A stretch of DNA of 56,895 nucleotides from Candidatus Yanofskybacteria bacterium RIFCSPLOWO2_02_FULL_44_18 (GTDB lineage Bacteria > Patescibacteriota > Minisyncoccia > 2-02-FULL-40-12 > GWA2-44-9), in assembly GCA_001794755.1 (NCBI GenBank), contig MGKT01000002.1, forward strand, positions 65,130 to 122,024. Direction: 5' to 3'. The notes below the pieces were generated by a model. It was not told where the DNA came from. It saw only the letters and a list, made by a program, of their open reading frames with translations, and ran no database searches. Position 1 is the stretch's first letter. Each line of letters opens with the position of its first letter. Shown in pieces: positions 3,600-50,537 of the stretch. The translations under genes were made by a program, and so were the position numbers.

Positions 3600-3638
3600 G
3601 AGGGTGCTTGACCAACGCGGTCGGGCACCCTCTTTTTT
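3600..3638 (+). terminator. intrinsic terminator (copy 1 of a shared terminator)
   Basis: GAGGGTGCTTGACC-AACGC-GGTCGGGCACCCTC followed by T6. Confidence 0.8.
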
Positions 3639-3655
3639 AGTGTCAAAATTGGCTA

Positions 3656-3685
3656 TTGACAGAGGGCCATAGAGTGTGCTATAAT
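3656..3685 (+). promoter_or_regulatory. sigma70-type promoter
   Basis: TTGACA-N18-TATAAT with extended -10 TG. Confidence 0.75.
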
Positions 3686-3716
3686 ATAGATATACTGCAT
3701 ATTCAAGGAGCCGCAG

Positions 3717-4001
3717 ATGATACGATTGATGGACGAGAAGCCGGATTCGTTCGGGAGGGTGCGGGTCGAGGTCGTGGCAGATGGCGCCAAGAGGGTGTCG
3801 TTCGCCCGGCTGGGCGCGCTCGTCGCGAATCACGCGACGGGCTTCTACGACCGGGTGCTCATCGGCGCGCCGCGCCTGTGCGAGGTCAAGAGCGGCGACG
3901 TCGTGACGCGACGAGAAGTCGCGCAGACGTACGTCGTGCCGACGACGATCAGCATCCGGTCATCCGCGAGCAAGGCGCCGGCCATCCGCCGCGCGGCGTA
4001 G
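3717..4001 (+). CDS. small hypothetical protein
   Basis: 94-aa ORF with AAGGAG SD directly after a consensus promoter; GC-rich third positions. Confidence 0.55.
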   Translation: MIRLMDEKPDSFGRVRVEVVADGAKRVSFARLGALVANHATGFYDRVLIGAPRLCEVKSGDVVTRREVAQTYVVPTTISIRSSASKAPAIRRAA

Positions 4002-4244: not shown

Positions 4245-4787
4245 ATGATTCCAATGAGGAGATCCTATGAAAAATCCGGAATGACCGGAAAAATAGTTGA
4301 GCAAGAACTGTTCGGGAAAAGTCTGTATGAACGTGAAACAAAAGAATTATTTCCCGATTATTCTTACGCTGACAAGTTAAGGTGTCTTGATATTATTAAA
4401 AAACACCAACCTTCGAGCCCCACAAATCCACAAAGAGAATTTGCCCACCATGTCCGGTCCCGCGTCTGCATTTTATTAGGTGTCGATCAGAAAATTGTCA
4501 GGTTTTATACGGCAGTTGACTCGCCCTTGGATCAATTTCATCAAGTTGATGGCTGGTTTGAGATCAAATTTAGGGGCGTTAATATTTTGGTCACCGTTGA
4601 TTTAACCTCAAGGCCCGAAAAAGACAAAACCAGATCGGATATAATTTTTCACGTCCCTATTGAAGGGCTTTCGAGCGCTGTTGACGAAACAGAGTTTTTG
4701 AGTTATGCTAATGATATGTCAGAGCAAGTAGTGCTGGAATTTCAAAGACAGGGAATTCCGTCACGGAAAGGAAGCCATCATGGCTGA
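4245..4787 (+). CDS. hypothetical protein
   Basis: 180-aa ORF overlapping the next gene; start uncertain. Confidence 0.6.
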   Translation: MIPMRRSYEKSGMTGKIVEQELFGKSLYERETKELFPDYSYADKLRCLDIIKKHQPSSPTNPQREFAHHVRSRVCILLGVDQKIVRFYTAVDSPLDQFHQVDGWFEIKFRGVNILVTVDLTSRPEKDKTRSDIIFHVPIEGLSSAVDETEFLSYANDMSEQVVLEFQRQGIPSRKGSHHG

Positions 4788-9878: not shown

Positions 9879-9950
9879 AGATTGAATTTGATTTCGCCGA
9901 TAGTGCGCCGGAAGCGGACTAATGGGTGCTCTGCGAATTCAAAGCAATCT
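9879..9950 (-). promoter_or_regulatory. structured rpsF leader, possible S6:S18 autoregulatory element
   Basis: Arms 9879-9897 and 9933-9950 pair and enclose CCG-containing loops next to the start codon; promoter TTGACA-N17-TAATAT just upstream. Confidence 0.4.
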
Positions 9951-36120: not shown

Positions 36121-36207
36121 GGTGAGATGGCTGAGTGGTCTAAAGCACCACGTTGGAAACGTGGCGTAGGGGAAACTCTACCGTGAGTTCGAATCTCACT
36201 CTCACCG
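36121..36207 (+). tRNA. tRNA-Ser(GGA)
   Basis: Acceptor GGTGAGA/TCTCACC, anticodon arm CCACG-TTGGAAA-CGTGG, long variable arm, T-loop TTCGAAT; CCA not encoded. Confidence 0.95.
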
Positions 36208-36228
36208 CCTTCGATATTTCTTATCGGA

Positions 36229-36329: not shown

Positions 36330-37043
36330 ATGGAATTTAAAGAAGCAACTAAAATTCTCGATGCCATCCTCTCCAAAAAAAATCCACCATATTTTAACAG
36401 CTCGTGGATTTTAAAAAATGCTCCAAAAGTTTATCGATTCATTTGGACAAATATCAGAACAGAAAATAGAGATATAGATTGGGATAAAGTAACTCGATCC
36501 CTTAATCACAGATTTTGGAAAAGATGGCAACATCCCAGGAAAAGACCAAAACAATACTGGGATAAAAAAGAAGTTCATCGAGTATTAAAGATATATAAAG
36601 ATAAGCTATATACATTTATAACTGCCCTAAATGACGAGGATAAATATCTTAGAGATATTATAAGCGTATCCCTGGTTAGACTAGCTCAAAATGGCAATAA
36701 ATCAGCCAGTAAAGAACTCTCTGAGTTATTACGATACACAATAGACCATTGGATAGAGTATTGCTGGAAACTCAATCGTTGGCGAGGATATGAAGACAAA
36801 ATTCAAGAAAAGATCGATTGCTGTATCCGTCGCTATCGATATACCGGATCTTTCATGGCTTATCTGTTTAAAACTCTAGAGTATTCAAGCTGGGGTTTCA
36901 GGCTATTACATAAACACTCTTTAGATGAATATATACCCGGAAGAACCGACAAAAGACGGATTGATAACGTAGTCCAAGATCCAGAAACAGGAGAAATTGG
37001 AATGTATGACAGGGCTAACCAATCTGGGATGCCGGATCTATAG
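36330..37043 (+). CDS. hypothetical basic protein, possibly sigma/regulator-like
   Basis: 237 aa; LVRLAQNGNKSASKEL resembles a sigma-factor N-terminal region. Confidence 0.6.
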   Translation: MEFKEATKILDAILSKKNPPYFNSSWILKNAPKVYRFIWTNIRTENRDIDWDKVTRSLNHRFWKRWQHPRKRPKQYWDKKEVHRVLKIYKDKLYTFITALNDEDKYLRDIISVSLVRLAQNGNKSASKELSELLRYTIDHWIEYCWKLNRWRGYEDKIQEKIDCCIRRYRYTGSFMAYLFKTLEYSSWGFRLLHKHSLDEYIPGRTDKRRIDNVVQDPETGEIGMYDRANQSGMPDL

Positions 37044-38358
37044 TAACAATTTTCTTAGTAAACTTTATCTTTGACTTGAAGCATCCCATCAATTCACGTT
37101 TCTCCTCATTAGCGCCTTCTTTGAGAATATATTTGGCATAAGTTTTTAAATCTATGTCTTTATGTTTTGTCTTCTTATCAGAAAATCCTAGAACTCCTTT
37201 TTGGAACTTATTAAATCTTTTAAGTTCATCCTCAAATTTAATCTGTATTCCGGAATTGTTAAAATCAATTTGGTCTAGGAGCTTAATTAGCTGATCTATC
37301 AAATCTTCTTCTCGCAGGTACTCGTTTTTACAATGTCTATCCTTAGATCTGCCACAGCCATAGTATATGTATTTAGCTGTAGTCCCATCCTTAAGCTGTT
37401 TATACTTCTCCTCGGCTGATATCATTGAGCTACATAAGCCGCAGACCATTAATTTGGTAAAGGCGAATTCATGGCTGGTCCTAATAATATTATCCCTTTT
37501 AAGCTGTTCTTGGACTTTATCAAATAGCTCTTTATCGATAACCGGTTCATGTTTACCCTGGTACCATTGATTACTCTTTTTAGGATATTCGAAGATTCCG
37601 TAATAGAAAGGATTTTGAAGCATCCTAAATATATTGCTTAGAGCCATATTATGGTTGCCCACCGATTTGAAGTTTAATTCAAACTTAAGCCAATGATGTA
37701 TCTTTCTGCCCGACCATTTCTCATGAGCCATTTTCTCAAATATCTTTTTAACAATCGGCGATCGATCAGGATCTAGGATCACCTGGCACTTTTTGTCCAT
37801 GTGCTTTTGATTTAAGTATCCTATTGGGGCCACTCCCGGCCAGAGGCCCATCTCAACTCTTGTCCGTAGTCCTCTCTTTACGTTAATACCCCGGTTATCG
37901 TTTTCTAATTTAGCTTGAGAGCCTAGTATCATAAGAAGGAACTTCTCATTTGGATTATTTGAGAATCTTTGACCATATGTTCTGATTTCTTTTAAGATCC
38001 CCGCATCCATAAGATCTACTATCTTTCCTAAGTCTCCTGCATTTCTAGATATACGATCTGGTGCCCAGGTTAATATGCCGTCAAACTTATTCTGCTGAAT
38101 ATCCAGTATTATCTCGTTGAAGATTGGTCTTTGGCCTGTTTCTTTAGCTGAATGAGACTCTCTTTTTACCGTAACGATCTCCAATTGCTCTCTTTCGGCC
38201 AAAAGGAGCATCTCCTTGATCTGACTATCAATAGAGAGTATTTGTTTTTCTTCTGATTCTGATGATTTCCTGGCATAGAGGCAATACCTTACCTTTGCTG
38301 GTATTGCCTGTGGCTGGGTCCCTGAAAGCCCTTGGATATTGTGATTATTCATATACAC
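37015..38358 (-). CDS. large serine recombinase (resolvase + recombinase + zinc ribbon)
   Basis: YCLYARKSSE..Q..SIDSQ, ESHSAK..RP, DRISRN, APIGY, NPFYYG, CGLC...YYGC. Confidence 0.93.
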   Translation of the reverse strand: MYMNNHNIQGLSGTQPQAIPAKVRYCLYARKSSESEEKQILSIDSQIKEMLLLAEREQLEIVTVKRESHSAKETGQRPIFNEIILDIQQNKFDGILTWAPDRISRNAGDLGKIVDLMDAGILKEIRTYGQRFSNNPNEKFLLMILGSQAKLENDNRGINVKRGLRTRVEMGLWPGVAPIGYLNQKHMDKKCQVILDPDRSPIVKKIFEKMAHEKWSGRKIHHWLKFELNFKSVGNHNMALSNIFRMLQNPFYYGIFEYPKKSNQWYQGKHEPVIDKELFDKVQEQLKRDNIIRTSHEFAFTKLMVCGLCSSMISAEEKYKQLKDGTTAKYIYYGCGRSKDRHCKNEYLREEDLIDQLIKLLDQIDFNNSGIQIKFEDELKRFNKFQKGVLGFSDKKTKHKDIDLKTYAKYILKEGANEEKRELMGCFKSKIKFTKKIVTIDPASQIG

Positions 38359-38449
38359 AAGGGATGACGTAATCCCCTAAAGGAGTCCAGAGCGTCCCAG
38401 TTGGTAAGTTAAAATTGGATTAATAGCCTTCTTTTTGTTAGAATTTTCT

Positions 38450-38594
38450 AACAACCTAATGACCTAAACCCGGTGACTTCATTGGGCATGGCACAAAACC
38501 ACCTGCATACCAAACTTGTCGTTTGGCTTCCACGCATGTGGTTATAGAGGAAACTCTATAAAAGAGCTTATGCTCTAAGCCAGGCGACTTTTTT
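38450..38594 (+). ncRNA. unidentified structured RNA, copy A
   Basis: Promoter TGGATT-N17-TAGAAT (38416-38444); helices covary with copy B; ends in a T tract at the RT stop. Confidence 0.65.
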
Positions 38595-39727
38595 TATTGT
38601 TTGTTTAGCCGAAAGAAGATCTGGTTTTCAAGGTCTTGTTGAAGAATAAAAGAATTACTATGGCTTAAGATCCCCAGATAAGAATGGATGGTATGGTCAA
38701 GTGAGTCATAAGACAATGATCCTTGATTATACGATTTAATTTTTTCGTAAATCTTGGCAAAAATTCTTTTCTCGGTTTTTATCCTTGGCAGTATGAAGTG
38801 TGGGAAACAAACATATCCAAGGAAATCAACGCCTTGGCTTAATTTTCGAACCGTAATTTTATTGGGATGTAATTCAAGTTTCAACCTATCTTTCAGAAAA
38901 TCTTTTATTAAATCCTGGATTTCAAAACAATGCTCTCTTTGAGGATGAAGTATCACAAAATCATCGGCGTAACGAATGTAATGTTTTTCGTGAAGTTCGT
39001 GCTTCATAAACTGGTCGAGCTCATTGAGATAAATATTGGCAAAAAGTTGCGAGGTCAGGTTGCCTATCGGCAATCCCTTAGGCTCACTGGGATCTACTGT
39101 ACGATCCGAACTAAAACTAGATATAACTTCCTCAAGAAGTCGTCGAGTGTGTATGCTCCTAATACGTCCGAAAATTATATCTATGAGAATTTTTTGATCA
39201 ACACTTGCAAAAAACTTTCTGATATCACATTTCAAAATCCAACATGGCTGAGTATTGTTTTTGCTGACTATTCTTGCGTATCGGATAAGTTGTTCCACAC
39301 CACGATGAGTTCCTTTATCTTTTCGACACGAATAGGAATCATGGATAAAAGTTTTATCAAAGATTGGATTAACATGCTTAACGATGGCGTGATGGAGTAC
39401 ACGATCTCTAACCAGGGCTTTGTGGATGTGGCGTAGTTTTGGGTCTTGCACGAAAAATGATGTATATCCGGAATGCTTGTAAGTTTTATCGGCCAGCTCT
39501 TGATGAAGCTCCCAAAGATTATCTTCTAAATTGCGTTCAAACTCTATAGTATCCAGCCGGTCCTTTTTGCCAATTCTAAATTCTTTCCAAGAGGTGATTA
39601 AATTATCGATCTTAACTATTTCGTCAAAAAGATTATGAACAACCATAAAAATACTGGACAGTTTAATTTGGAAACTCCGATCTTCAAAAAGACATACGAC
39701 TTTTTGAAAGAATTCTACATTTTTCAA
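38594..39727 (-). CDS. DGR reverse transcriptase
   Basis: PKLRHI, RDRVLHHA, SYSCRKDKGTH, KCDIRKFFAS, GLPIGNLTSQLFAN (DGR-type SQ), YIRYADDF, GVDFLGY; likely start ATG 39646. Confidence 0.96.
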   Translation of the reverse strand: MKNVEFFQKVVCLFEDRSFQIKLSSIFMVVHNLFDEIVKIDNLITSWKEFRIGKKDRLDTIEFERNLEDNLWELHQELADKTYKHSGYTSFFVQDPKLRHIHKALVRDRVLHHAIVKHVNPIFDKTFIHDSYSCRKDKGTHRGVEQLIRYARIVSKNNTQPCWILKCDIRKFFASVDQKILIDIIFGRIRSIHTRRLLEEVISSFSSDRTVDPSEPKGLPIGNLTSQLFANIYLNELDQFMKHELHEKHYIRYADDFVILHPQREHCFEIQDLIKDFLKDRLKLELHPNKITVRKLSQGVDFLGYVCFPHFILPRIKTEKRIFAKIYEKIKSYNQGSLSYDSLDHTIHSYLGILSHSNSFILQQDLENQIFFRLNKQ

Positions 39728-40015
39728 TTAGACTTTCCAAAGAAAGATCGCTACAGCCTGGGACAACGATGTGAGACTTATCTGCTCGGCGTACTTGAGG
39801 GTATCATGCTTGCCAGCCAGACGAGTAAAGATAGGAAATATCTTATTCTTCAGCAGGCCAGTGGCAAGTTAGATATGCTTAAGGTTTTCGTGAGATTAGC
39901 CGGGGACATCAAGATTCTCAGCGATAGCCGATACATAAAGTGTCAGAATCAAATTCAAGAAATCGGTAAGATGCTGGGTGGCTGGATGAAGTCTACCCAC
40001 GAAGATCAGTTTTAA
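39635..40015 (+). CDS. avd: DGR accessory variability determinant (four-helix bundle)
   Basis: PIFKKTYD..FPKKDRYSLGQR..EIGKMLGGW; lies between TR and RT. Confidence 0.88.
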   Translation: MNNHKNTGQFNLETPIFKKTYDFLKEFYIFQLDFPKKDRYSLGQRCETYLLGVLEGIMLASQTSKDRKYLILQQASGKLDMLKVFVRLAGDIKILSDSRYIKCQNQIQEIGKMLGGWMKSTHEDQF

Positions 40016-40054
40016 CTATCAGGCCTTCTCTAAGAGAAGGCCTGATAGTTAAAA
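40010..40054. repeat. perfect 21-bp inverted repeat just 3' of the TR
   Basis: TTTTAACTATCAGGCCTTCTC-TAA-GAGAAGGCCTGATAGTTAAAA. Confidence 0.9.
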
Positions 40055-40067
40055 AACGACGATACTG

Positions 40068-40184
40068 CCGAGAGGGGCAGACACCGAGATTCGAATTCGC
40101 ATTGTCGCGGGAATCGTTGTTCACGTTGAGACCGTCCGAGTCGAAGTTGCCAACGTTGACGGAGTTACCGTCGGAAGACTGCAC
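40068..40184 (-). ncRNA. DGR template repeat (TR), 117 nt
   Basis: Differs from the three VRs only at its adenines; 24 A in 15 codons, 9 of them AAY. Confidence 0.97.
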
Positions 40185-40565
40185 CGATATGTTTTATTCC
40201 CTCCATGAGCGCTCCATAGCCACTGGGGATTATCAAAAGATTCTCCCCTGAATTTTACCTGGTAGCAGTCCTTTGATTTACGCAGGACATCTACGCTGAA
40301 ATAAAACACGTAGTTTCGTAGTTTTTACTACTTTCCGGCCACGCCACTTCTTATAGCCAGGGCCATAAGAACTCCGGTGGATATCAAAAAGAGGAGGTTC
40401 GTAAGATTAAACTAGCCTGAGCCGAGCTTAATCTCTATTAACAAAGCTCAGTAATATTGTTGCATAAAATACCCGGTTATAAAAGGACTGGTAAAATTCT
40501 ATTTTTGACTGTATATTTATGTAATAAAGTTCCGACTACACCACTTGTGGTGAGTTTATTGAACC

Positions 40566-41393
40566 ATGCCATTTGAAGCCTACAAAATCTACGAAGAATA
40601 CGAGCCGGATAAGTTCAAAAACTCGACTCAGAAAAAAGTTGAGCAGGCTTTAGATACCGCTAAAAAAGAAGGGCTAGTACCCGAGGCTAAAGAAACCAAT
40701 ATCGAATTCGATGAAGCTCGAGAAATATTTGGCAAAGACTTCTTGGGGCCAGAAGCAATTCAAACCACTTTCGGCGTTGAATTAACCCCAGACGAACTCA
40801 AAGAAGTAGAAGATATTCCTTTTACCAGAGAAGAGCTGGAACAAGCCAAGCAATTGGGTATGATGTTGGTTCTAAGAGTGCCCAGACTCGGTGAAGGCAA
40901 AACAGAGCGTCCTCTAACAATTGATTCTGCCAGAGAACTATTTAACAAGGGCGATTCCCTTGGCGATCCTAAGAAAAAGAAACAAAAAGTATTTTATGGC
41001 AAAAAGGGCGAGAGCTGGTATGATAATGAAAAATTTGCGACCCAAGACACTCCTAAGCTTGGTTGGGGTTTAGTTATGAAATCGGTATTACCTGATTCAC
41101 TAAGTAAAAACTGGAACCAGCAAGAGGAAGTTCTTAAGAAATGGGCAAAGGATAACAACATAAACCCCAGTCTTGTTAAGAGAAGGACACCCGTAGAAAT
41201 TGCCTACGATACCCTGATATATTACGGTGAGAATAAGGAGTCATTGTTAGAGAATAGGTACGACTGGTCCGGCGTGCAGTCTTCCGACGGTGGCTCCGTC
41301 TACGTTGGCGGCTTCGACTCGGTCGGTCTCGGCGTGCGCTTCGATTCCCGCGACGGTGCGAGTTCGTATCTCGGTGTCTGCCCCTCTCGGTAG
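40566..41393 (+). CDS. DGR target protein 1 (CLec-like fold, C-terminal VR)
   Basis: VR at the 3' end; YDWS motif before the VR and terminal GVCPSR; paralogous to targets 2 and 3. Confidence 0.92.
   Translation: MPFEAYKIYEEYEPDKFKNSTQKKVEQALDTAKKEGLVPEAKETNIEFDEAREIFGKDFLGPEAIQTTFGVELTPDELKEVEDIPFTREELEQAKQLGMMLVLRVPRLGEGKTERPLTIDSARELFNKGDSLGDPKKKKQKVFYGKKGESWYDNEKFATQDTPKLGWGLVMKSVLPDSLSKNWNQQEEVLKKWAKDNNINPSLVKRRTPVEIAYDTLIYYGENKESLLENRYDWSGVQSSDGGSVYVGGFDSVGLGVRFDSRDGASSYLGVCPSR
41274..41390 (+). repeat. variable repeat VR1
   Basis: 16 mismatches to the TR, all at TR adenines. Confidence 0.97.
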
Positions 41394-41460
41394 TTTCGAG
41401 ATACTTGGGCACTTGGATTCCTTGATTCTTATTGGTTTCCTTGGGTATTCGAAAATTTTT
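41394..41460 (+). repeat. conserved post-VR element 1 (IMH-associated)
   Basis: TTTCG...(CTTGG/CTTGA units)...TTCGAAAA, shared with the elements after VR2 and VR3. Confidence 0.75.
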
Positions 41461-41502
41461 TGAGGGCTGGTAAAATACCATTTTTAATTGTAATATCCAT
41501 AT

Positions 41503-43176
41503 ATGTCTAAAGAGCAAATCCCACATATTCCCAATGTTCTAACTACTCCGGAAAGGGTAATGGAGGAACATGGGCTAGATGAGTCAAAAGAGAAGGTAAA
41601 ACTTTCTCCGGAACAGGTTGAAACTAATGTTAATGAGCTAACGGAGCTTTCTGCTTCTCGTGCCGAAGCTTCTAAGCATGTTCGTGAGTCATATGGCGGT
41701 TTAACCAAATCTGAACGGGAAGAACTTAAAGAAAAAGGAGAAGGTGCCGTGGTGGCCCAGCTCGATGCATTAAATATTGATCCAGAATTAGCCGAGTTTT
41801 CTGAGGGAGTTTTGGCTGACTATGATAAGAGGATTCAAGAATTGGGTAGTAACCCGAAAGTTCTAGAGGAATATAAGAAAAGATTCGAGAAACTTAAAGG
41901 AACCTTAGGTAATGTCGTGGCGTATGAGCATATTCAAGGTGAGCTAGATGCTGTTACTAAGAGCGAGCAAAAACTCCGATTGTTATATGAAAAAGTCGGC
42001 CGTGCACCTGGTCCGATTGAGAAGAAAAAACTAGCTGAACTAACAGAACACAAAAATACTCTTCAAGAACAATTAAATAAGTTTGAATTAGATCCGGCTT
42101 CTGTCGGCATGCTACGGCGTAGAGAAGTCAGAAAAATGCAACAAGATCTTGAACGATATAGTTTTGCCGAAACAGAGTCCCGAACCGAACTAATCAGAGA
42201 AGTTTTGCCCGACCTCATGCAGGGCGCCCCGATTCTTTTTCAAGGTGAAACTGGTTCCGGTAAATCTCAACTAGCAAAATATATTTCCGAACGATATCTG
42301 GGCAAAGAACCGGTTATTATTTCGGTCAGTGAACAGATCAAGGAATCACAGATTATGGGTACCCGCGGATTAGAAAACGGAGAGACTGTCTTCAACTATT
42401 CTGAGTTTATCAAAGCTCAACAAGATGGACGACCGGTAGTACTTGATGAGGTGAATCTTATGCCTCACGAATTCTCCGGTCTTTTGCACGATCTTTTGCA
42501 GAAAAGAGTCGGCGATGTCTGGACTCACCCTGTTACAGGAGAAGCAATCAAAATTACCGCCCCTATCATGGCTACTGCCAACCTTAAGTCAGAACGCTAC
42601 AAACAGCGTTATGAGTTAGACGTGGCAACTCTCCGAAGATTCATCGGCGGAGCCGGAGCAAGAGAAATCCATTATTTGGACTTAGGCGAGAAAGACAAGG
42701 AAGGTAATTATATCGCTCCCGAAACATTAAAAATCCTAGCTTCAGTAATAGCCGATAGAAATGGCAATATTTCTTGGAGCGTCGGGGAAGCTCCACAGAA
42801 AATGGAACAGCTCAAAAGATTCGTTCAGGCTTGCCGTAAAATTCAAGAAGATTTTACCTTGAGTGTTCGGGAAGGTGCTGAAGAATCGTTAGCCAAAAGT
42901 GACCGCCTAGCTTTTAGAGAGTTGGTCATCACTCTTAAGGATCAAATTGAGATTATGAAGGCCTGGAAAGCGTCTGGTTTTCAAGAACCTTTAGACCAAA
43001 TCGTCTTGAAGGAATTCTTCCGAAAAGCTGAAATAAGCGGACGGGCAGCCAAAGACAGAGAGAATATGGTCAAGGTATTCATGGCTAATAAGTTTTTCCA
43101 AGACACTAAACCTGAAGATTTTAATATCCAAGGCCTTTCGGCTAAAACAGTTCGCCAATGGCAAGGAAAAGAATAA
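41503..43176 (+). CDS. MoxR-like AAA+ ATPase (AAA_5 type) with N-terminal coiled coil
   Basis: GETGSGKS, VVLDEVN, ATANL, LDVATLRRF. Confidence 0.88.
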   Translation: MSKEQIPHIPNVLTTPERVMEEHGLDESKEKVKLSPEQVETNVNELTELSASRAEASKHVRESYGGLTKSEREELKEKGEGAVVAQLDALNIDPELAEFSEGVLADYDKRIQELGSNPKVLEEYKKRFEKLKGTLGNVVAYEHIQGELDAVTKSEQKLRLLYEKVGRAPGPIEKKKLAELTEHKNTLQEQLNKFELDPASVGMLRRREVRKMQQDLERYSFAETESRTELIREVLPDLMQGAPILFQGETGSGKSQLAKYISERYLGKEPVIISVSEQIKESQIMGTRGLENGETVFNYSEFIKAQQDGRPVVLDEVNLMPHEFSGLLHDLLQKRVGDVWTHPVTGEAIKITAPIMATANLKSERYKQRYELDVATLRRFIGGAGAREIHYLDLGEKDKEGNYIAPETLKILASVIADRNGNISWSVGEAPQKMEQLKRFVQACRKIQEDFTLSVREGAEESLAKSDRLAFRELVITLKDQIEIMKAWKASGFQEPLDQIVLKEFFRKAEISGRAAKDRENMVKVFMANKFFQDTKPEDFNIQGLSAKTVRQWQGKE

Positions 43177-43995
43177 ATGCCATTTGAAGCCTACAAAATA
43201 TACGAAGAATACGAGCCAGATAAGTTTAAGACCACTACTCAAAAGAAAGTTGAGCAAGCTCTCGATACTGCTAAGAAAGAAGGGCTAGTTCCCGAGGCAA
43301 AAGAGGCCCACGTTGAATTTGAAGAAGCCAAAGAAATATTTGGAGCAGATTTTCTCGGTCCCGAATCTGTCGGGACAACATTTGGCGTTGAATTTTCTCA
43401 AGAAGAACTTAATCAGATAGAAAATATCCCATTTACTCGTGAAGAATTAGAAAAAGCCAAAGAGCTTGGAATGATGCTGGTCTTACGCGTGCCAAGAGTT
43501 GGCAAGGATAAAACCGCCAAGCCACTTACGATCAAGCAAATGAGAGGCGTATTCAAGGGAGAAGATAAGCTCGGTGATCCTAAAAAGAAAAAATCTCAAA
43601 TCTTCTACGATCAGGATTGGTATAACAAAGAAGAATTCGCCACCAAAGACACGCCATCTCTTGGTTGGGGTCTTGTTATGAAGAAAATACTAGAAGAATC
43701 AAGAAGTAAAAACTGGGATCAGCAACAAGAAGTACTTAAAAAGTGGGCAGAGGAAAACGGCATTGACTCCACTTCAATTAAACGCCGAACTCCGGTTGAG
43801 ATAGCTTATGATACGCTTCTTTATTATGGCGCGAATAAAGAGTCCTTGTTATCAGATACTTGGGATTGGACTGGCGTGCAGTCTTCCGACGGTCACTCCG
43901 TCTACGTTGGCTTCTTCGGCTCGGTCGGTCTCGTCGTGTACAGCGGTTCCCGCGGCGGTGCGTATTCGAGTCTCGGTGTCTGCCCCTCTCGGTAG
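43177..43995 (+). CDS. DGR target protein 2
   Basis: Paralog of target 1; VR2 at the 3' end. Confidence 0.92.
   Translation: MPFEAYKIYEEYEPDKFKTTTQKKVEQALDTAKKEGLVPEAKEAHVEFEEAKEIFGADFLGPESVGTTFGVEFSQEELNQIENIPFTREELEKAKELGMMLVLRVPRVGKDKTAKPLTIKQMRGVFKGEDKLGDPKKKKSQIFYDQDWYNKEEFATKDTPSLGWGLVMKKILEESRSKNWDQQQEVLKKWAEENGIDSTSIKRRTPVEIAYDTLLYYGANKESLLSDTWDWTGVQSSDGHSVYVGFFGSVGLVVYSGSRGGAYSSLGVCPSR
43876..43992 (+). repeat. variable repeat VR2
   Basis: 16 mismatches to the TR, all at TR adenines. Confidence 0.97.
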
Positions 43996-44066
43996 TTTCG
44001 TAGGGTACTTGGGAGCTTGGACTCCTTGATTCTTATTGGTTCCCTTGGGTATTCGAAAAAAATTTT
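43996..44066 (+). repeat. conserved post-VR element 2
   Basis: Same CTTGG-unit element as after VR1. Confidence 0.75.
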
Positions 44067-44082
44067 ATATAACCACATCTAA

Positions 44083-46071
44083 ATGCCAGAATCATTTCCC
44101 ATAAATAGAATAGAAGCTCCTCAAGACGAACCTAAGCCAGAGGTTCCAAAACAGGAAAACGAGATTGACGCTCAAGCAGTTGAGGAATTTTTAAATAAGG
44201 AAACCGAAATATTAGGAGCCTATGGATTGCGAGGCGATATTACCTTAGAACGAGGTAACGGTGGCTGGGCATTTGATTTTCAAAACAGAAAACTCATCTA
44301 TGATCCAAAATTCTTCATAGAACGTGGCTATAGCCTCCAGGAAACTCTCTTTGCCACCACTCATGAACTCATGGCTCACTACGGTGAGCTAATGCGTGAT
44401 CCGGAGCTTGTTTTAAAGGAAGCCAAACGATATAGCGCCAAAGGCCACCTTCATCTTTTATACAATATCTTTGAAGATGTGCTGGGTAACAGACGTATAG
44501 TTGCCGAGCTACCGTTCTTAGAAGAAACCCGGGAGCAACTTTACCGAGAAAAGATGTTTCCACCGACTGACTACACCGACAAATCTTCCCACGTTCAATT
44601 TACTTACGGCTTTATCCGCCAGATGATGGTGCCCGGTGAAGCGGTACAGCTTGGTCCAGAAGCTCAGACCGCTTTGGATAAATTAAGAAGCTTTGGCTCA
44701 GATAAAATAGATATTCTCGATCTGGTCACTACTCCAACTATTGATCCTAAAGATCGCTTTCGAATCATGCGGACAATTGTTGAACCTATTTATCGAGAAC
44801 TTTATGAAAAAGATTTGGAAGAAGAGAAGAAAAGTGGCAAGAGCAAGGATCAGGGCGAAGGATCACCCACAGACACTAAAGTTTCTGACAAACCGCAACA
44901 AGGCCAAGGTTCAGGTCAAGAGAAGAAAAAATGGTGGCAAAGAAAAAAGGAAGAACCTCAAGAAGGAAAAGGTAAAGAGCAACAACCTGGTAAGGGCGGA
45001 GATAAGAAATCCAGCGAGCGAGCCGCTAGAGAAGCGGCTGAAAAGAAGTTTAAGAAAGAATATAAGACCTATCACGATGGTCATCCCGAACCCATAACAC
45101 ATGCAGAAGAAAAACAAATCAAGAAGTTGATGGAAGAAATAGTCGCTAAAAAGGGCGGACAACCTACTCTTGAACAAAACATTCTTGAGGAATGGGCCCG
45201 TGAGCATGGAGTCAGCGCTGAGGATGTTCTCGGCTATCGCAAAGAGTATGAAGAGATTGCTCCCCTGGTGGCCGAGCTAAGAGAAGTTTTTAAAAAGATA
45301 ATTGCTAGACGGTTAAAAGAACGCTGGCAATTTTCGCCTCAGCTTAAAACAGAAGGTGAGGAGCTAGCCGAGGATACATTAGTCGACTCTTCAATTGAAT
45401 CACGAGCTGGAGGCCAACCGAGAGCGTTTAGAGAGATTGAAAGGCACAAGAGAGAACAGGAAGGCTATGGCATGCTGGATATGTCTTTGGTTAATGATTT
45501 ATCCGGCTCGATGAATGAGGGTGGCAAACTTGAAATGGACCGTAAGAGTAAGCTGTTATTCTTAGAGTCTCTGGCTGATTTTCAAAAAGAAATAGAAGAA
45601 GCTGAATTTGAAAGTGGTGTTTCATTAGGCCTGCAAGTTAGAACCGAAACCAGAGCGTTTGGTGACTTTGGAGATGTAGAATTAAAATCGTTATCACCCG
45701 ATTTATCGGAGAAAGACAGGATTGGGATTTGGAAAAAAATGCATAAAGCCGGTGGCGGTACGCCAGATTATCTTTCTCTTGAAGAAGTTCTTAATTCAAT
45801 AACTCCAGAACAAGAAAAGGAGTTAAGAGATAAGTCAAGAAGAAAAGTTATCGTCGTACTTTCTGATGGTGAGAGTCAAGATTCAGGCAAAGTTCAAGCT
45901 GTTTTACTCCAGCTAAGAAATAGAGGGGTTATATGTTTAGGATTGGGCATGACTGAATCAGGTCAAGCCGTCAAAGAAACATACAAGCCGGATGCCGAAG
46001 TAATAACAGATATCAAAGAGTTGCCACAAGCAGTTCAAAAAGTTATTCTAAAATATACTCAAGATCTATAA
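44083..46071 (+). CDS. vWA (MIDAS) protein with N-terminal metallopeptidase-like domain and charged linker
   Basis: THELMAH and YNIFED; MIDAS NDLSGSM, GGGTPD, VVLSDGE. Confidence 0.85.
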   Translation: MPESFPINRIEAPQDEPKPEVPKQENEIDAQAVEEFLNKETEILGAYGLRGDITLERGNGGWAFDFQNRKLIYDPKFFIERGYSLQETLFATTHELMAHYGELMRDPELVLKEAKRYSAKGHLHLLYNIFEDVLGNRRIVAELPFLEETREQLYREKMFPPTDYTDKSSHVQFTYGFIRQMMVPGEAVQLGPEAQTALDKLRSFGSDKIDILDLVTTPTIDPKDRFRIMRTIVEPIYRELYEKDLEEEKKSGKSKDQGEGSPTDTKVSDKPQQGQGSGQEKKKWWQRKKEEPQEGKGKEQQPGKGGDKKSSERAAREAAEKKFKKEYKTYHDGHPEPITHAEEKQIKKLMEEIVAKKGGQPTLEQNILEEWAREHGVSAEDVLGYRKEYEEIAPLVAELREVFKKIIARRLKERWQFSPQLKTEGEELAEDTLVDSSIESRAGGQPRAFREIERHKREQEGYGMLDMSLVNDLSGSMNEGGKLEMDRKSKLLFLESLADFQKEIEEAEFESGVSLGLQVRTETRAFGDFGDVELKSLSPDLSEKDRIGIWKKMHKAGGGTPDYLSLEEVLNSITPEQEKELRDKSRRKVIVVLSDGESQDSGKVQAVLLQLRNRGVICLGLGMTESGQAVKETYKPDAEVITDIKELPQAVQKVILKYTQDL

Positions 46072-46072
46072 T

Positions 46073-46900
46073 ATGCCATTTGAAGCCTACAAAATCTACG
46101 AAGAATACGAGCCGGATAAGTTCAAAAACTCGACTCAGAAAAAAGTTGAGCAAGCTTTGGATACTGCTAAAAGAGAAGGTCTTGTGCCTGAAGCCAAAGA
46201 AGTAAACATTGAATTCGATGAAGCTAGAGAGATATTTGGTAAAGATTTCCTTGGTCCGGAAGCTATTAAAACAACATATGGTATCGAACTTACTCCAGAC
46301 AAGCTACAAGAAATTGAGAACATACCATTTACTAGAGAGGAATTAGAACAAGCAAAACAATTGGGAATGATGCTGGTACTTAGGGTGCCGAGTATTGGTG
46401 AGGGCAAGGAAGCTAAGCCCCTAACTATTGATCAAATACGAGAGAAGTTTTCAGGCGGAGATACGCTAGGTGATCCTAAGAAAAAGAAGAAGAAAATGTT
46501 TTATCGAAGCAAGGGTGATGGGTGGTTTGATACGGAAAAGTTTGCTCTCGAAGGAACTCCCAAACTTGGCTGGGGCCTAGTAATGAAATCTGTTTTGCCG
46601 GACTCATTGAGCAAGAATTGGGATCAACAAGAAGAAGTACTCAAAAACTGGGCTAAGCAAAATAACATTGATCCAACGTTAGTTAAACGCAGAACACCTG
46701 TAGAAATTGTCTATGATACTTTTCTCTACTACGGAGAAAATAAAGAAACTCTATTAGAAGATACCTGGGACTGGACAGGCGTGCGGTCTTCCGGCGGTTT
46801 CTCCGTCTACGTTGGCGGCTTCGACTCGGACGGTCTCGGCGTGGGCGGCGGTTCCCGCGGCCGTGCGGATTCGAATCTCGGTGTCTGCCCCTCTCGGTAG
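46073..46900 (+). CDS. DGR target protein 3
   Basis: Paralog of targets 1 and 2; VR3 at the 3' end. Confidence 0.92.
   Translation: MPFEAYKIYEEYEPDKFKNSTQKKVEQALDTAKREGLVPEAKEVNIEFDEAREIFGKDFLGPEAIKTTYGIELTPDKLQEIENIPFTREELEQAKQLGMMLVLRVPSIGEGKEAKPLTIDQIREKFSGGDTLGDPKKKKKKMFYRSKGDGWFDTEKFALEGTPKLGWGLVMKSVLPDSLSKNWDQQEEVLKNWAKQNNIDPTLVKRRTPVEIVYDTFLYYGENKETLLEDTWDWTGVRSSGGFSVYVGGFDSDGLGVGGGSRGRADSNLGVCPSR
46781..46897 (+). repeat. variable repeat VR3
   Basis: 18 mismatches to the TR, all at TR adenines. Confidence 0.97.
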
Positions 46901-46971
46901 TTTCATAGGGTGCTTGGGCACTTGGATTCCTTGATTCTTGTTGGTCCCCTTGGGTTTTCGAAAAAATTTTA
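46901..46971 (+). repeat. conserved post-VR element 3
   Basis: Same element as after VR1 and VR2. Confidence 0.75.
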
Positions 46972-47066
46972 TACTTCCCCTAATTAGTGAGTTGGCAACT
47001 TGCTTTACTTAGTTTTATGTCTAAGCTATGGTGGACGCCATGGTCGATATTTGATAAAATTCCCTT

Positions 47067-47222
47067 AACAATTCATTGCCTAACCCCATTGATACCCTCA
47101 GTGGATATGGCATAAAACCCACCTGCATACTGAACCCGTCGTTCAGCTCCATGCAGGTGGTCCATATCCGAAAGGGTATGGGAGGGCGCAAGCCCTCGGC
47201 TAGCGGCGGGCTTTGTGTTTTT
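47067..47222 (+). ncRNA. unidentified structured RNA, copy B
   Basis: Promoter TGGACG-N17-TAAAAT (47032-47060); GAAA and GCAA tetraloop hairpins; covaries with copy A. Confidence 0.65.
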
Positions 47223-47259
47223 ACAAAAAGCTCTCGCTGGATAAAACCCACCTGCACAA

Positions 47260-48045
47260 ATGAAAATAAAAATTATTGTACTTTATTTGTTTTTAGTTCT
47301 TTCAATTTTTGTAACTCAAAAGGTCGAAGCCGTTTCTGGCGCCTGCTCTTATCATGGCGGTGTAGATTGCGGTGCTGGCCCAGATTATGACGGTAGTGTT
47401 ATCTGCAACGATGGCTGGCGAGATAGCTCTGTGGGGTATTACGGAACTTCTATGTGTAGAAGTAGCGATATTCCGCTTTGTGTGTATCCTGTTGGAATTG
47501 GATGCACCGATGAATCATCTTATAACAGCATGAGAGCGATGTGGGCTCGCTCTGGATATCCGGATACGATGCTTTCAAATCTTCAAGAATGTCGTAATCA
47601 AATTGATGAATATAATAGATTAAAAGCTGAGTATGATTCCTGTCTATACAGAATGATGAATCCGACCCCGTATCCTACGCCGATACTTACTCCTCTCCCA
47701 ACAGCAACTCCATATTATGACCCATGTCCTGAAGGCTGGATAAATTTAAAAAGTTTAAATCTTTGCATTAAACCTGCAACTCCTACACCAATTCCTCTTG
47801 TTACGCCAACCCCGACACCGACAGAGTTATTCAAGGACTTATTTAAAAATTACTCATCCACACCTGCTCCAAAACCAAAAGTAACACCAAAGGTTACCCT
47901 TACTCCAAAAATAAGACCCACCATGTCCCCATCCATAAATCCGGAACCAACAGCAACCATAGAGGCCAGAAAAGAGGCATTAGTTTCAAACAATAATACC
48001 CTGACAAGAGTATTTAATTTATTTAAGAAAATTAAGTTCTGGTAA
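47260..48045 (+). CDS. secreted Cys-rich protein with Pro/Thr-rich stalk
   Basis: Signal peptide (..KVEA), ACSYHGGVDC..CNDGW motif, PTP repeats. Confidence 0.8.
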   Translation: MKIKIIVLYLFLVLSIFVTQKVEAVSGACSYHGGVDCGAGPDYDGSVICNDGWRDSSVGYYGTSMCRSSDIPLCVYPVGIGCTDESSYNSMRAMWARSGYPDTMLSNLQECRNQIDEYNRLKAEYDSCLYRMMNPTPYPTPILTPLPTATPYYDPCPEGWINLKSLNLCIKPATPTPIPLVTPTPTPTELFKDLFKNYSSTPAPKPKVTPKVTLTPKIRPTMSPSINPEPTATIEARKEALVSNNNTLTRVFNLFKKIKFW

Positions 48046-48046
48046 T

Positions 48047-50152
48047 CTACTCATCATAACTACGCGCGCCGCCTTCGTATTCACATCTTGCGACATACAG
48101 AGGTTGAACATATGGTCTTCTAAGCTCAATCTCACGTTCACGGCTAAATGTTAACGCCAAAGCATCAATGGCATCTGGCGAAGAGAGGCCGTCATGCATC
48201 ATCTCATCTCTTGTCTTTACCCCAATCTTTTTATCCCCATGTACCTTATACTGCACCTGAGATAGTTGATTAAAAGCATTGTTTTCCAGAAGAACCAGAT
48301 TTTTTTCAATCCAGTTTTTGAGACGCCAACAACTTTGGGATCGAAGATTAATGAAATTCTTGCCATCATTTTCTGGAAACTCAGGTTCACTGCCCGGTTT
48401 AACTGCCACTACTTTCTGGGCTATATACCAGTTGTGGTTATCCAGCTGATTACGAAGCAACTCATACACTTCTTCACCAAGACCAAAAGTCTCCACAAAT
48501 ATATTCGATGGCTTAATATTAAATCGTTTTACGAGTTCAATAACTTGGTCGGCAATGACCGTAGGGTTAGCATGAGCATCCTGATACATAACCTGACCAC
48601 TGATAGCGGCTTTAAGCACGATCGTAGAAAACATACGTCCAGCACCTGTCGTGACCACTCCAATACGGAATGGCTCTGTCCATCGTTCCATCTTTGATAT
48701 GTATGCTTGCTCCATCCGTTCCTTAGTTAGCAGATATGAGTATTCATCAATGGCAGTATCTTTTTCAAATACTTTAATAACGAGTGTGGTAAACGCGTCG
48801 ATAAGATCGTCGTGTCGTTCTCTACCAAAGCCTAAGATCTGGTTGATGAGAATTTCGGCCCCTTGTCTAGGAAAGAGTACCTTAGCAGATTGAATAGCCG
48901 GAGCAGTCATGATCAATCGGGTCCGCTTATCATTCCCTCCAATTTTGAACTCCTCGGCTGGGAAGCCTTCGTCTCTTAACTGCTGAAAAAATGCCGATTG
49001 ATATGCAACCGATTCAATAAATAAATGGGCATATTCCATACTTCTTGATAGCTGCTTAGCTTGTTGAAGAGCAGTCGGAAAATCAAAGCGTTTATTAATA
49101 GGATTCGGCAAGATATATATCTTGAGATTATCTCGGGTGCCATACACTCGGGCAGAAATCATGGCCGTGAAATCAGCACTATTAGATTCACTGATTGCTA
49201 GATCAATACCAATACCGGTAAAGCGATAATCCAACGAACCAACATCCGGTAGGGTATCGTAATACTGAATCCATTCAGGATGGATAACCTGGTCATCATC
49301 CGGCAGAATATTGAGCATGAATTCTCGCTGAAAGGCACGTTCATCCATGGTGCGCTTAAGATCATCAATACTTTTATGATTTGGAAACTTTCCCGGCCAA
49401 GTGACTTGCTCGTTCTCATCAATCAAGGGATACCTTCGATATATGCCATCAAACTTTTTGCTTTTGATGTTCTGGATGAGTTTCATTAGAAGTGAGTCAT
49501 TATGGAGAAGATTGCCGATGATGATAATCCGAGTATGTAAATCACCGGCTGGAATGACATCGCCATTGAACCAAGCGAATAGCTTGTCCCGAGATTCCTG
49601 TGTTTTAACTGACTCAAGATCTTCTAAGTCATCTCCAATAATGAGGTCGGGGCGGTATTGGCCATGCCGGATACCGCGGATACTTTGCTCGGTAGAAGAA
49701 GCAAGGATCTTTGCACCATAGCGTGGGATGACTAACGCAAGCGAGCCCCACTCGTCCGTTTCTTCTTTGAACGGTCCCAAATCCATTTTTAGGAGGATAT
49801 TAGTTTCCAACTCTTTCTTGATATTTAATAGATGTTGACGAGCTTGGCGTTGGGTCTGGCTGGCAATGACGATTAATTTTTTTTGCTGATCACCAAGTAT
49901 CGCCCACAGCGGATACGACAAATTGAATATGGTGGACTTTGCCGAATTACGGAATGCAATGATGACCGCATTCTTGATCTTGGCGTTTTCAGTAATACGA
50001 AAGAAGTCCGTATGGAATGGCGCCGCTCGACTTTTGATATAGTGATTTAGATAGATAGCGAAAAACCATTCATGACTTTGACGAGCTATATCTCTCCGGA
50101 CTTTTCTATCATGAATGATTTTATTAACTAATTTTTTTGATGGTTTTTTCAT
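48047..50152 (-). CDS. phage terminase large subunit-like protein
   Basis: AFRNSAKST, IRGIRHGQYRPDLIIGDDLED, IIGN, FQREFM, IGIDLA, HDDLIDA. Confidence 0.85.
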   Translation of the reverse strand: MKKPSKKLVNKIIHDRKVRRDIARQSHEWFFAIYLNHYIKSRAAPFHTDFFRITENAKIKNAVIIAFRNSAKSTIFNLSYPLWAILGDQQKKLIVIASQTQRQARQHLLNIKKELETNILLKMDLGPFKEETDEWGSLALVIPRYGAKILASSTEQSIRGIRHGQYRPDLIIGDDLEDLESVKTQESRDKLFAWFNGDVIPAGDLHTRIIIIGNLLHNDSLLMKLIQNIKSKKFDGIYRRYPLIDENEQVTWPGKFPNHKSIDDLKRTMDERAFQREFMLNILPDDDQVIHPEWIQYYDTLPDVGSLDYRFTGIGIDLAISESNSADFTAMISARVYGTRDNLKIYILPNPINKRFDFPTALQQAKQLSRSMEYAHLFIESVAYQSAFFQQLRDEGFPAEEFKIGGNDKRTRLIMTAPAIQSAKVLFPRQGAEILINQILGFGRERHDDLIDAFTTLVIKVFEKDTAIDEYSYLLTKERMEQAYISKMERWTEPFRIGVVTTGAGRMFSTIVLKAAISGQVMYQDAHANPTVIADQVIELVKRFNIKPSNIFVETFGLGEEVYELLRNQLDNHNWYIAQKVVAVKPGSEPEFPENDGKNFINLRSQSCWRLKNWIEKNLVLLENNAFNQLSQVQYKVHGDKKIGVKTRDEMMHDGLSSPDAIDALALTFSREREIELRRPYVQPLYVARCEYEGGARSYDE

Positions 50153-50537
50153 GTTTATTTTTAGGCGATGAAGATACTAATCTCAAGGCCTGTTTAATGA
50201 GAGCTTCTTGCTCTGGGGTTAATTTTTCGGATGAATGTTTAAGGTGACCGCTAATTTCTAAGCGATCTGTATAGGTAGTATGATGGTTCTTGAGCCAGTA
50301 TATGACAGCAGTCATATTTTTGTCTCTGATTGCAGAAATAAGCTGGGACTCGGCCATATCATTTATCAGAAGAGATCCTTCGCTTAAAGCTTCGTCCGAA
50401 GCTTTCGCAAATTCTGTATCGCTTTTTCGCCAACGATAATATGTCATGCGACTGATACCAAGTTTTTCACAAGCTATTTGTACAATGGGAGTCTTTTTAA
50501 GTTGTTCGAGCAATAATGCTTTTTGATCTTTTTTCAT
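50124..50537 (-). CDS. HTH protein, probable terminase small subunit
   Basis: IVQIACEKLGISRMTYYRWRKSD, AESQL..AVIYWLK; directly upstream of TerL. Confidence 0.75.
   Translation of the reverse strand: MKKDQKALLLEQLKKTPIVQIACEKLGISRMTYYRWRKSDTEFAKASDEALSEGSLLINDMAESQLISAIRDKNMTAVIYWLKNHHTTYTDRLEISGHLKHSSEKLTPEQEALIKQALRLVSSSPKNKHEKTIKKIS

Follow-up and report, generated by a model that had tools for sequence, protein, structure and literature searches.

We analysed a 56,895-nucleotide (nt) stretch of Candidatus Yanofskybacteria bacterium RIFCSPLOWO2_02_FULL_44_18 (contig MGKT01000002.1, positions 65,130 to 122,024; hereafter the window), in which two diverged copies of a structured RNA, copy A and copy B, flank a diversity-generating retroelement (DGR). 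Both RNAs are copies of LOOT (RF03000), an already catalogued family, and nothing sets them apart from that family. The counts presented below show that LOOT belongs to integrase-bearing, phage-derived islands of Patescibacteria (the candidate phyla radiation, CPR) and is not a component of the DGR, which is one of several cargo modules of these islands. From sequence comparison, LOOT is best read as an island RNA that probably acts in cis as a 5' leader or switch, a reading to which we assign a probability of about 0.6.

When the whole window was scanned with Rfam 15, three matches exceeded the gathering thresholds, namely one transfer RNA (tRNA) and two LOOT RNAs. RF03000, whose model has 121 positions and a gathering score of 46.4 bits, matched copy B at 47077-47197 (+) with 83.9 bits and copy A at 38461-38577 (+) with 51.2 bits, each over model positions 1-121. 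A search of the whole genome reproduced both as LOOT, and Infernal aligned both across all 121 positions of the single covariance model. An earlier sequence-only reading had described the pair as an unidentified RNA and a new noncoding RNA class; since both copies exceed the curated gathering score, this claim falls, and the Rfam scan on which that reading had let the novelty depend returned a known family. The finding is deflated to this extent, as the RNA already has an Rfam name. The Rfam 14 paper (PMC7779021) pictures LOOT as a 'metagenomic-based RNA' from the Weinberg/Breaker (ZWD) collection, and the 2017 survey (PMC5737381), which covers 224 motifs, leaves it undiscussed in its main text. 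A structure-prediction paper described unusual cross-covariation in LOOT, with about 43 base pairs and six helices. Literature searches on LOOT RNA and LOOT motif found no functional study, and Rfam files the family as a small RNA gene ('sRNA'). Beyond the Rfam model, we observed a covarying 3' tail that forms a pseudoknot outside the 121 positions and is absent from the public model, a promoter signature, a receptor-type P1 loop and a distinct genomic setting. The elements of the two copies are as follows.

38415-38444 (+): copy A promoter-like site, TTGGAT at 38415-38420, 18 nt, then TG-n-TAGAAT ending at 38444, read from the sequence
38450-38460 (+): copy A 5' leader, with the AACAA start motif at 38450-38454
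38461-38577 (+): copy A core as modelled by Rfam, with P1 and its receptor-like loop, P2, P3, P4 with GAAA, and P5
38463-38491 (+): copy A CCTAAA (38463-38468), then the 5' hairpin, then CATGG (38487-38491)
38499-38507 (+): copy A CCACCTGCA
38510-38526 (+): copy A inner hairpin, CCAAAC/ttgtc/GTTTGG
38534-38541 (+): copy A GCATGTGG
38543-38560 (+): copy A TATAGAG-GAAA-CTCTATA
38563-38576 (+): copy A AGAGC-ttat-GCTCT
38577/38578 to 38595/38596 (+): copy A 3' tail, including GGCGAC and T7; AGCCAGGCGAC pairs with the P3 region and is followed by T7
47032-47060 (+): copy B promoter-like site, TGGACG-17 nt-TG-n-TAAAAT, from the promoter scan; 94% identical to the LOOT promoter of another locus (L041)
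47077-47197 (+): copy B core as modelled by Rfam, 83.9 bits
47198-47222 (+): copy B 3' tail; GGCTAGCGGCGGGCTTTGTGT pairs with 47127-47148 (junction and P3) and is followed by a T run
47223-47240 (+): copy B 'anti-tail', an alternative to P3 as pairing partner of the tail (RNAfold of 47070-47285 and own-versus-foreign test)
47241-47256 (+): copy B strand repeat, an exact 16-nt duplicate of the A-rich linker and P2 5' strand (47112-47127)

Every element named in the sequence-only reading is present in both copies at the position given for it, and the order of elements across copy B (47032-47222) is identical to that in copy A. The two copies share only a single stretch of 34 nt at 79% identity. 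Both contain the six nested helices and conserved loops of the RF03000 model, and both fold beyond shuffled controls (RNAfold z-scores of -4.68 for copy A and -5.40 for copy B; 0 of 200 shuffles as stable). Copy A, the low-scoring one, has several P2 pairs that are non-standard in the Rfam alignment and a P5 loop outside the GNRA type, and keeps the receptor, the GAAA loop, the pseudoknot and the promoter-like site.

We further compared these copies with two sets of LOOT loci, amounting to 69 copies that were each retrieved with about 10 kb on either side. The first set consisted of 29 copies from 61 related genomes, this genome counted (hereafter the relatives), and the second (the phylum set) of 40 copies, out of 41 above threshold, that came from a further 150 genomes spread evenly over the phylum; one supra-threshold copy of 49 bits (G077:C1:348159) was left out of the latter, as was one sub-threshold match per genome search (L029; G135:C2) from the copy sets. 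Covariation was counted among the 29 relatives on a MAFFT alignment made with no structural guidance. In this alignment, 93.6% of the cells were paired versus 73.3% in shuffles and 31 of 35 pairs varied on both sides, values that are favoured by the tested structure having come from the very alignment counted. None of 500 shuffles reached any of the measures, and every slid control was beaten too. The columns of P1, P1a, P4 and P5 all covaried. P2, whose register MAFFT does not hold, was assessed together with P3 on the Rfam alignment. Those arms in which copies A and B differ (5' hairpin, inner hairpin, GAAA stem and last stem) compensate across the relatives, in agreement with the earlier statement that structure had been kept while sequence diverged.

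The 3' tail, which lies beyond model position 121, forms a further helix. RNAalifold, applied to the unguided MAFFT alignment, itself picked a tail helix with the junction and P3 that starts just after the P2 5' strand. This pseudoknot comprises 15 pairs, with 95.6% of the cells paired and double changes at 12 of the 15 among the relatives. In a test that is independent of the alignment-derived structure, the P3 region paired better with its own tail than with foreign tails, both in the relatives (-26.7 versus -17.1 kcal/mol) and in the phylum set (-26.8 versus -17.5 kcal/mol), with 0 of 20000 permutations as extreme in either. Moreover, U-G occurs at three of the pairs in 18, 22 and 27 of the 29 sequences, and such frequent U-G pairs fix the strand and favour an RNA. 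Judged by covariation and own-tail preference, the pseudoknot is real and long; the sequence-only reading's proposal that the 3' GGCGA/GGCGGG pairs with the inner loop is supported, and the helix extends further than proposed. A simple scan for local hairpin terminators found 0 sites in 38300-38750 and 0 in 46900-47350, and the helix that precedes the T run is the long-range one between the tail and the P3 region.

A second structural feature lies in the P1 loop. The 11-nt GAAA tetraloop receptor has been given as UAUGG:CCUAAG (PMC10004510). The P1 loop of LOOT, accompanied by a GAAA loop on P4, resembles it, with CCUAAC:UAUGG in copy B (47079-47084 and 47106-47110; 10 of 11 canonical letters) and CCUAAA:CAUGG in copy A (38463-38468 and 38487-38491; 9 of 11). 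Among 75 sequences, CCUAAA with CAUGG was found in 38 and CCUAAC with UAUGG in 20 (together 58), the canonical CCUAAG:UAUGG occurred in one, and GAAA capped P4 in 74. Unlike the canonical receptor, LOOT carries C or A as the sixth letter, not G, and this letter covaries with the first letter of the other strand. In this covariation, which is of a non-Watson-Crick kind, A goes with C (38 sequences) and C with U (20). Given the receptor-like P1 loop and the near-invariant P4 GAAA, we reasonably infer that the P4 loop docks into the P1 loop, which would give LOOT a probable GAAA-receptor clamp.

Next, the genomic setting was compared among the 69 loci, with neighbours counted within a 10-kb radius by means of profiles made of the window's proteins together with their relatives. 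A serine recombinase was found near 48 of the copies (21 of 29 in the relatives and 27 of 40 in the phylum set); it lay upstream of LOOT in 36, on the opposite strand in all 36. The LOOT-to-gene distance ranged from 0.1 to 7.9 kb. Recombinase genes are common, with about 100 matches in the 61 genomes, a frequency we judged too low for 70% adjacency by chance. In contrast, a DGR-type reverse transcriptase (RT) was near only 8 of the 69 copies and absent within 10 kb from the other 61, and a relative of the window's DGR target protein was near 6, so the claim that the RNA is tied to this element fails. DGR-type RTs were present in 50 of the 151 phylum-sample genomes, and their occurrence near 5 of the 40 phylum LOOT copies corresponds, by rough arithmetic, to about a tenfold excess over random positions, which fits two passengers of shared islands and not partners. 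As LOOT and the DGR reside on the same kind of mobile island, their link is a by-product.

We then examined the sequences on either side of LOOT. A -10-like hexamer followed 9-20 nt on by [A/T]ACAA stood directly upstream in 41 of 75 copies, compared with 0-3 of 75 in each of six control windows, and good -10 hexamers peaked 16-30 nt ahead of the Rfam start. A simple promoter scan called the copy B site (TGGACG-17-TAAAAT with TG) and called no promoter for copy A, whose -10-like hexamer stands at a spacing that recurs across the family. The earlier description of both RNAs as promoter-bearing is therefore upheld for copy B and by the family-wide signature, and not by the scan for copy A. Downstream, the nearest open reading frame (ORF) was co-oriented in 66 of the 69 loci, within 400 nt in 64 of these, while the nearest upstream ORF was on the opposite strand in 51 of 69. 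The first downstream ORF encoded a hydrophobic segment of 19 amino acids (aa) in 51 of 64 cases (20/27 and 31/37 by set); the corresponding counts were 35 of 68 for ORFs in second place, 5 of 69 on the upstream side and 217 of 786 for ORFs of matched size from the same loci. When restricted to products of 76-300 aa, the proportion among first ORFs was 43 of 52 versus 217 of 786 (odds ratio 12.5). Few BLAST links were detected among the LOOT-neighbour ORFs, and no family was common to 16 upstream ORFs, among which 4 families each matched 1 member. LOOT has a fixed place between a promoter and membrane- or secreted-protein genes, beside serine-integrase modules.

The region between LOOT and this first gene repeats part of LOOT itself. 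In copy B, ATAAAACCCACCTGCA (47112-47127; linker plus P2 5' strand) recurs with 16 of 16 nt at 47241-47256, where the repeat ends 3 nt ahead of the ATG at 47260 and is complementary to the P2 3' strand (47151-47160). Across the loci, a start-codon copy of the P2 5' strand with a score of at least 10 was present in 17 of 69 own pairs (phylum set: 10 of 40) versus 119 of 4688 foreign ones, so that about a quarter of the family carries such a decoy. Fifteen of the 17 begin 32-51 nt past the Rfam end, and 14 of these 15 have an ATG within 4 nt. P2 varies between loci and yet the match is to the own P2, which implies co-evolution. The anti-tail sits between the tail and the start-codon copy, and its pairing was likewise stronger for own than for foreign partners (-11.74 versus -9.98 kcal/mol; 0 of 20000 permutations).

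These findings suggest how LOOT may work. It would be a cis-acting 5' leader made from its own promoter, with a compact core in which the P4 GAAA loop docks into the 11-nt-receptor-like P1 loop, and two of its strands would have look-alikes downstream in the same transcript. The 3' tail could pair either with the P3 region, giving the pseudoknot, or with the downstream anti-tail, and the P2 3' strand could take as its partner the P2 5' strand or, in loci that have one, the duplicate of that 5' strand over the start codon. With a folded core (P2 and tail-P3 formed), the start site would be free and the gene on; with an unfolded one (tail-anti-tail and P2-3'-copy formed), the start site would be covered and the gene off. 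An ion, a ligand, a protein or temperature are candidate triggers. Copy B, which leads the ORF at 47260-48045 encoding a secreted or membrane-type protein, fits this leader model in full, and copy A would be an orphan that lost or never had a co-oriented gene and heads into the RT gene from its 3' end. The sequence-only reading had offered an sRNA, a switch or a ribozyme; the switch is the one we favour, with a free sRNA and a ribozyme rated lower. That reading was half right, in that it had recognised a real promoter-bearing pseudoknotted RNA that is probably a switch, and the window contributes a DGR context for LOOT, not a new class.

The add adenine riboswitch is a translational ON riboswitch in which the translation start region is an alternative partner for one strand of a core helix. 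LOOT is like it in that a core strand can pair with the start region and the folded core would free the start. LOOT differs in that this platform is confined to the 17 loci with a start-codon copy, that the core strand's second partner literally duplicates that strand, that it has no known ligand, and that the downstream genes share a physical property and no family. A wider version, which we offer tentatively and consider doubtful, would make LOOT a CPR-wide riboswitch-like sensor class, with a tetraloop-receptor clamp, a long 3' pseudoknot and decoy strands as expression platform, that switches on the first membrane- or secreted-protein gene of islands, with copy A also gating antisense transcription into the DGR RT. 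CPR bacteria live attached to other cells, and RNA control of acquired surface proteins would therefore be relevant to them.

Several observations weigh against a leader or switch. The start-codon copy is present in only 17 of 69 loci, and in the other 52 the pairing of the P2 3' strand with the downstream leader was unconvincing (-12.66 versus -12.14 kcal/mol; 987 of 20000 permutations). A terminator based on the anti-tail was considered as a common platform and rejected, as it was found in 2 of 69, and most copies are therefore left with no recognisable expression platform. The downstream families are heterogeneous, unlike those of classical metabolite riboswitches, with no family common to 24 downstream ORFs (17 Pfam families, each matching 1 of the 24). 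Copy A is one of only 3 of the 69 copies that have no co-oriented downstream gene, and a U run behind the tail helix is also what an RNA ending at that point would show, in line with the Rfam label 'sRNA'. In addition, P2 and a full-length tail helix may, by reasoning on the fold, be sterically incompatible, and related genomes are not independent samples.

The strongest competitor, which we regard as unlikely though not negligible, is a free trans-acting sRNA of about 165 nt, transcribed from a promoter of its own up to the U run, that acts on island or host transcripts, for example as a phage immunity-type regulator. The conserved promoter signature and the strong tail helix closing the RNA with a U run would suit such a molecule, as would a copy A lacking a co-oriented gene and the 1 to 4 diverged copies per genome, and the start-codon copy is equally readable as a trans target site. 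An RNA acting in trans leaves unaccounted for the co-orientation of the next gene in 66 of 69 loci, mostly within 400 nt, and the strong bias in the type of protein encoded there; the complementary P2 3' strand is, moreover, buried in the RNA's own helix, and the simple scan found no local hairpin terminator at either copy. The P4 CI RNA and the P1/P7 c4 RNA are regulatory RNAs of temperate phages that use exposed loops and are processed from a transcript. LOOT is like them in residing on a prophage-like element and in having its complementary site repeated within the unit near a start codon, and unlike them in that the complementary strand lies within a helix. We also searched the upstream 300 nt for copies of LOOT segments on either strand, and found no difference between own and foreign pairs (score of at least 11 in 2 of 29 versus 33 of 808). 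The only clear upstream case among the 29, which counts against a free sRNA by its rarity, was the L004 locus of this genome, where 9905-9920 holds a copy of the own 3' tail on the opposite strand about 30-55 nt upstream (score 14.5).

Processive antitermination, in which a cis RNA modifies RNA polymerase, is exemplified by the put RNAs of phage HK022 and by the EAR element. LOOT could in principle play this part at the head of the island's rightward operon, as it stands directly behind a promoter, heads a same-strand run of heterogeneous genes with an opposite upstream ORF in 51 of 69 loci, and has a compact, tertiary-looking fold. We consider this improbable, as it leaves the start-codon copy and the anti-tail unexplained and as the protein bias peaks at the first gene (51/64) and not across the run (35/68 for the second).

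A self-cleaving or otherwise catalytic RNA appears more improbable still. The conserved unpaired nucleotides, the pseudoknot and the contact of tetraloop-receptor type are common to ribozymes and aptamers, and LOOT is located on mobile elements; the conserved unpaired letters, however, largely amount to the receptor motif and an A-rich linker, no cleavage-site signature was identified, and no ribozyme family reached the gathering threshold in the Rfam scan of the window.

Hardly any weight is left for LOOT as a partner of the DGR, whether as primer, template-handling RNA or retrohoming regulator, which would explain the two bracketing copies, and this is largely refuted by the counts. The RT excess, the flanking of a DGR both here and at one further locus, and the overlap of the copy A tail with the RT stop would fit such a role. 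However, copies A and B (+) lie outside the minus-strand unit of template repeat (TR) and RT (38594-40184), on the strand opposite to both, and only about 5 of the RT places in the phylum sample, with coordinates compared by hand, are within 10 kb of a LOOT. A DGR accessory RNA is contradicted by this position and strand and by the RT being near only 8 of 69. A motif of RT-associated RNA, RT-10, has been placed between the BPP-1 DGR's TR and its RT (PMC5737381); LOOT is like RT-10 (PMC5737381) in being a structured RNA beside a DGR RT gene, and unlike it in being located on the opposite strand, beyond the TR-RT interval, and in 61 of 69 cases with no DGR nearby. The further locus, L044 (G038:C3, 6422-13627), is the sole other one with two LOOT copies bracketing a target cassette. 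This LOOT-DGR-LOOT composite is 80-91% identical to the window in the genome of a different family, so the same composite has moved between genomes and is not an independent case; there, a 1.5-kb deletion has taken most of the RT, avd and TR, and both LOOT copies are kept. Three targets bearing variable repeats (VRs) remain at L044 with no local template or enzyme.

Equally implausible is a DNA-level role as an attachment or recombination site for the serine recombinase or as a boundary repeat of the DGR cassette, for although LOOT is close to serine recombinase genes and direct copies flank the 8.6-kb cassette, the G-U pairs are kept (18, 22 and 27 of 29) where the other strand would have C-A mismatches, conservation extends to GNRA loops and an RNA receptor motif, the recombinase gene can be as near as 0.1 kb or as far as 7.9 kb, and the copies have only 34 nt in common at 79% identity.

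LOOT is a widespread orphan RNA: between about a fifth and a third of the Patescibacteria genomes sampled contain it, often in several copies. It was detected in 20 of the 61 related genomes and in 30 of the 151 phylum-sampled genomes (this genome counted in each), with 1 to 4 diverged copies per bearing genome, and in none of 14 control genomes. A degenerate LOOT pattern, which recovers 13 of the 29 copies of the first set, matched 6 contigs in IMG/VR, all 6 of which were LOOT at 72-94 bits. In a collection of species-representative genomes, at least 119 stretches matched; judging by the titles of the 80 matches listed, 66 carried Patescibacteria/CPR labels (including Parcubacteria/Paceibacterota, Saccharibacteria, Nomurabacteria and Magasanikbacteria), 8 were unlabelled and 6 had other labels. 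All 18 genome-collection matches that were tested proved to be LOOT, including the 6 with other labels. These six contigs (L139, L178, L198, L181, L183 and L191; LOOT at 70-90 bits) are labelled Gammaproteobacteria (3), Lutibacter, Bdellovibrionales and Nanoarchaeia, and could be mis-binned CPR or phage contigs or represent genuine spread beyond the phylum. On one short contig (L131), two LOOT copies face each other at 3618-3738 (+) and 4295-4412 (-), about 560 nt apart.

The host genome comprises 631 kb in 9 contigs and is rated 100% complete. The features around the two copies are as follows.

36121-36209 (+): tRNA-Ser (GGA), from Rfam, just outside the island's integrase end
37015-38358 (-): large serine recombinase/integrase (Pfam Resolvase, Recombinase and Zn_ribbon_recom; phrog_95, E 2.8e-64)
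38594-39727 (-): DGR RT (Pfam RVT_1), convergent with copy A
39635-40015 (+): bAvd-like accessory protein (PF22296, E 2.2e-20)
40059-40184 (-): DGR TR, with inverted repeats I1-I3 and adenine-specific mismatches
40566-41393, 43177-43995 and 46073-46900 (+): DGR targets, three paralogous genes with a VR at the 3' end of each
41503-43176 (+): AAA_5 ATPase, interleaved with the DGR targets
44083-46071 (+): VWA protein, interleaved with the DGR targets
47260-48045 (+): ORF of 261 aa behind copy B, with no Pfam or PHROG family
48047-50152 (-): terminase large subunit (phrog_38, E 1.7e-80; Terminase_6C)
50124-50537 (-): terminase small subunit (terminase small subunit families)

The integrase, both terminase subunits and the cargo genes mark the region as a phage-derived integrative island. 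The recombinase gene is divergent from copy A, 103 nt from its Rfam start, and the terminase genes are convergent with the copy B unit, further right of which lie two DNA methylases and a KAP NTPase. The product of the ORF at 47260-48045 has an N-terminal signal-like hydrophobic segment followed by Cys-rich and Pro/Thr-rich parts. The DGR between the copies is real: mismatches between the three VRs and the TR fall on TR adenines in 17 of 19, 17 of 18 and 19 of 21 cases, and the best matches of the RT included homologues of 44-52% identity over most of their length. The earlier statement that the copies flank a DGR module is thus borne out by the TR, the three VRs and their adenine-specific differences. 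The T run of copy A overlaps the RT stop codon (38594-38596, minus strand), so read-through from copy A would be antisense to RT; we take this for a chance result of module shuffling that has little likelihood of being important.

The third LOOT copy of this genome, on another contig (L004, C4, 9949-10066; 72.3 bits), adjoins a second large serine recombinase and a D12 methylase, and the ORF behind it encodes an N-terminal membrane helix; no DGR was present within the 20 kb fetched around it.

Further observations concern the DGR and the cargo. The avd gene (+) sits between the minus-strand TR and RT, its start overlapping the 5' end of the RT ORF (39635-39727), an unusual gene order for a DGR. 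Behind each VR lies a 58-nt element (41404-41461, 44008-44065 and 46913-46970; 88-90% identical) that ends in a T/A run and may be a DGR target-recognition or hairpin element or a shared terminator. The three target proteins have no signal peptide and are interleaved with the AAA_5 (MoxR-like) ATPase and the VWA-domain protein, which suggests that what is diversified here is an intracellular or assembly-type system and not, as is usual, a receptor-binding protein of the surface. On the far side of the terminase and methylase block, the KAP-family P-loop NTPase (867 aa, 53476-56079, -) is likely to be defence-type island cargo. Finally, the genome carries a second DGR-type RT (G000:C4:39867-40973, -), 47% identical to that of the window and interrupted by two in-frame stops (1 TGA and 1 TAA), about 14 kb from the third LOOT copy.

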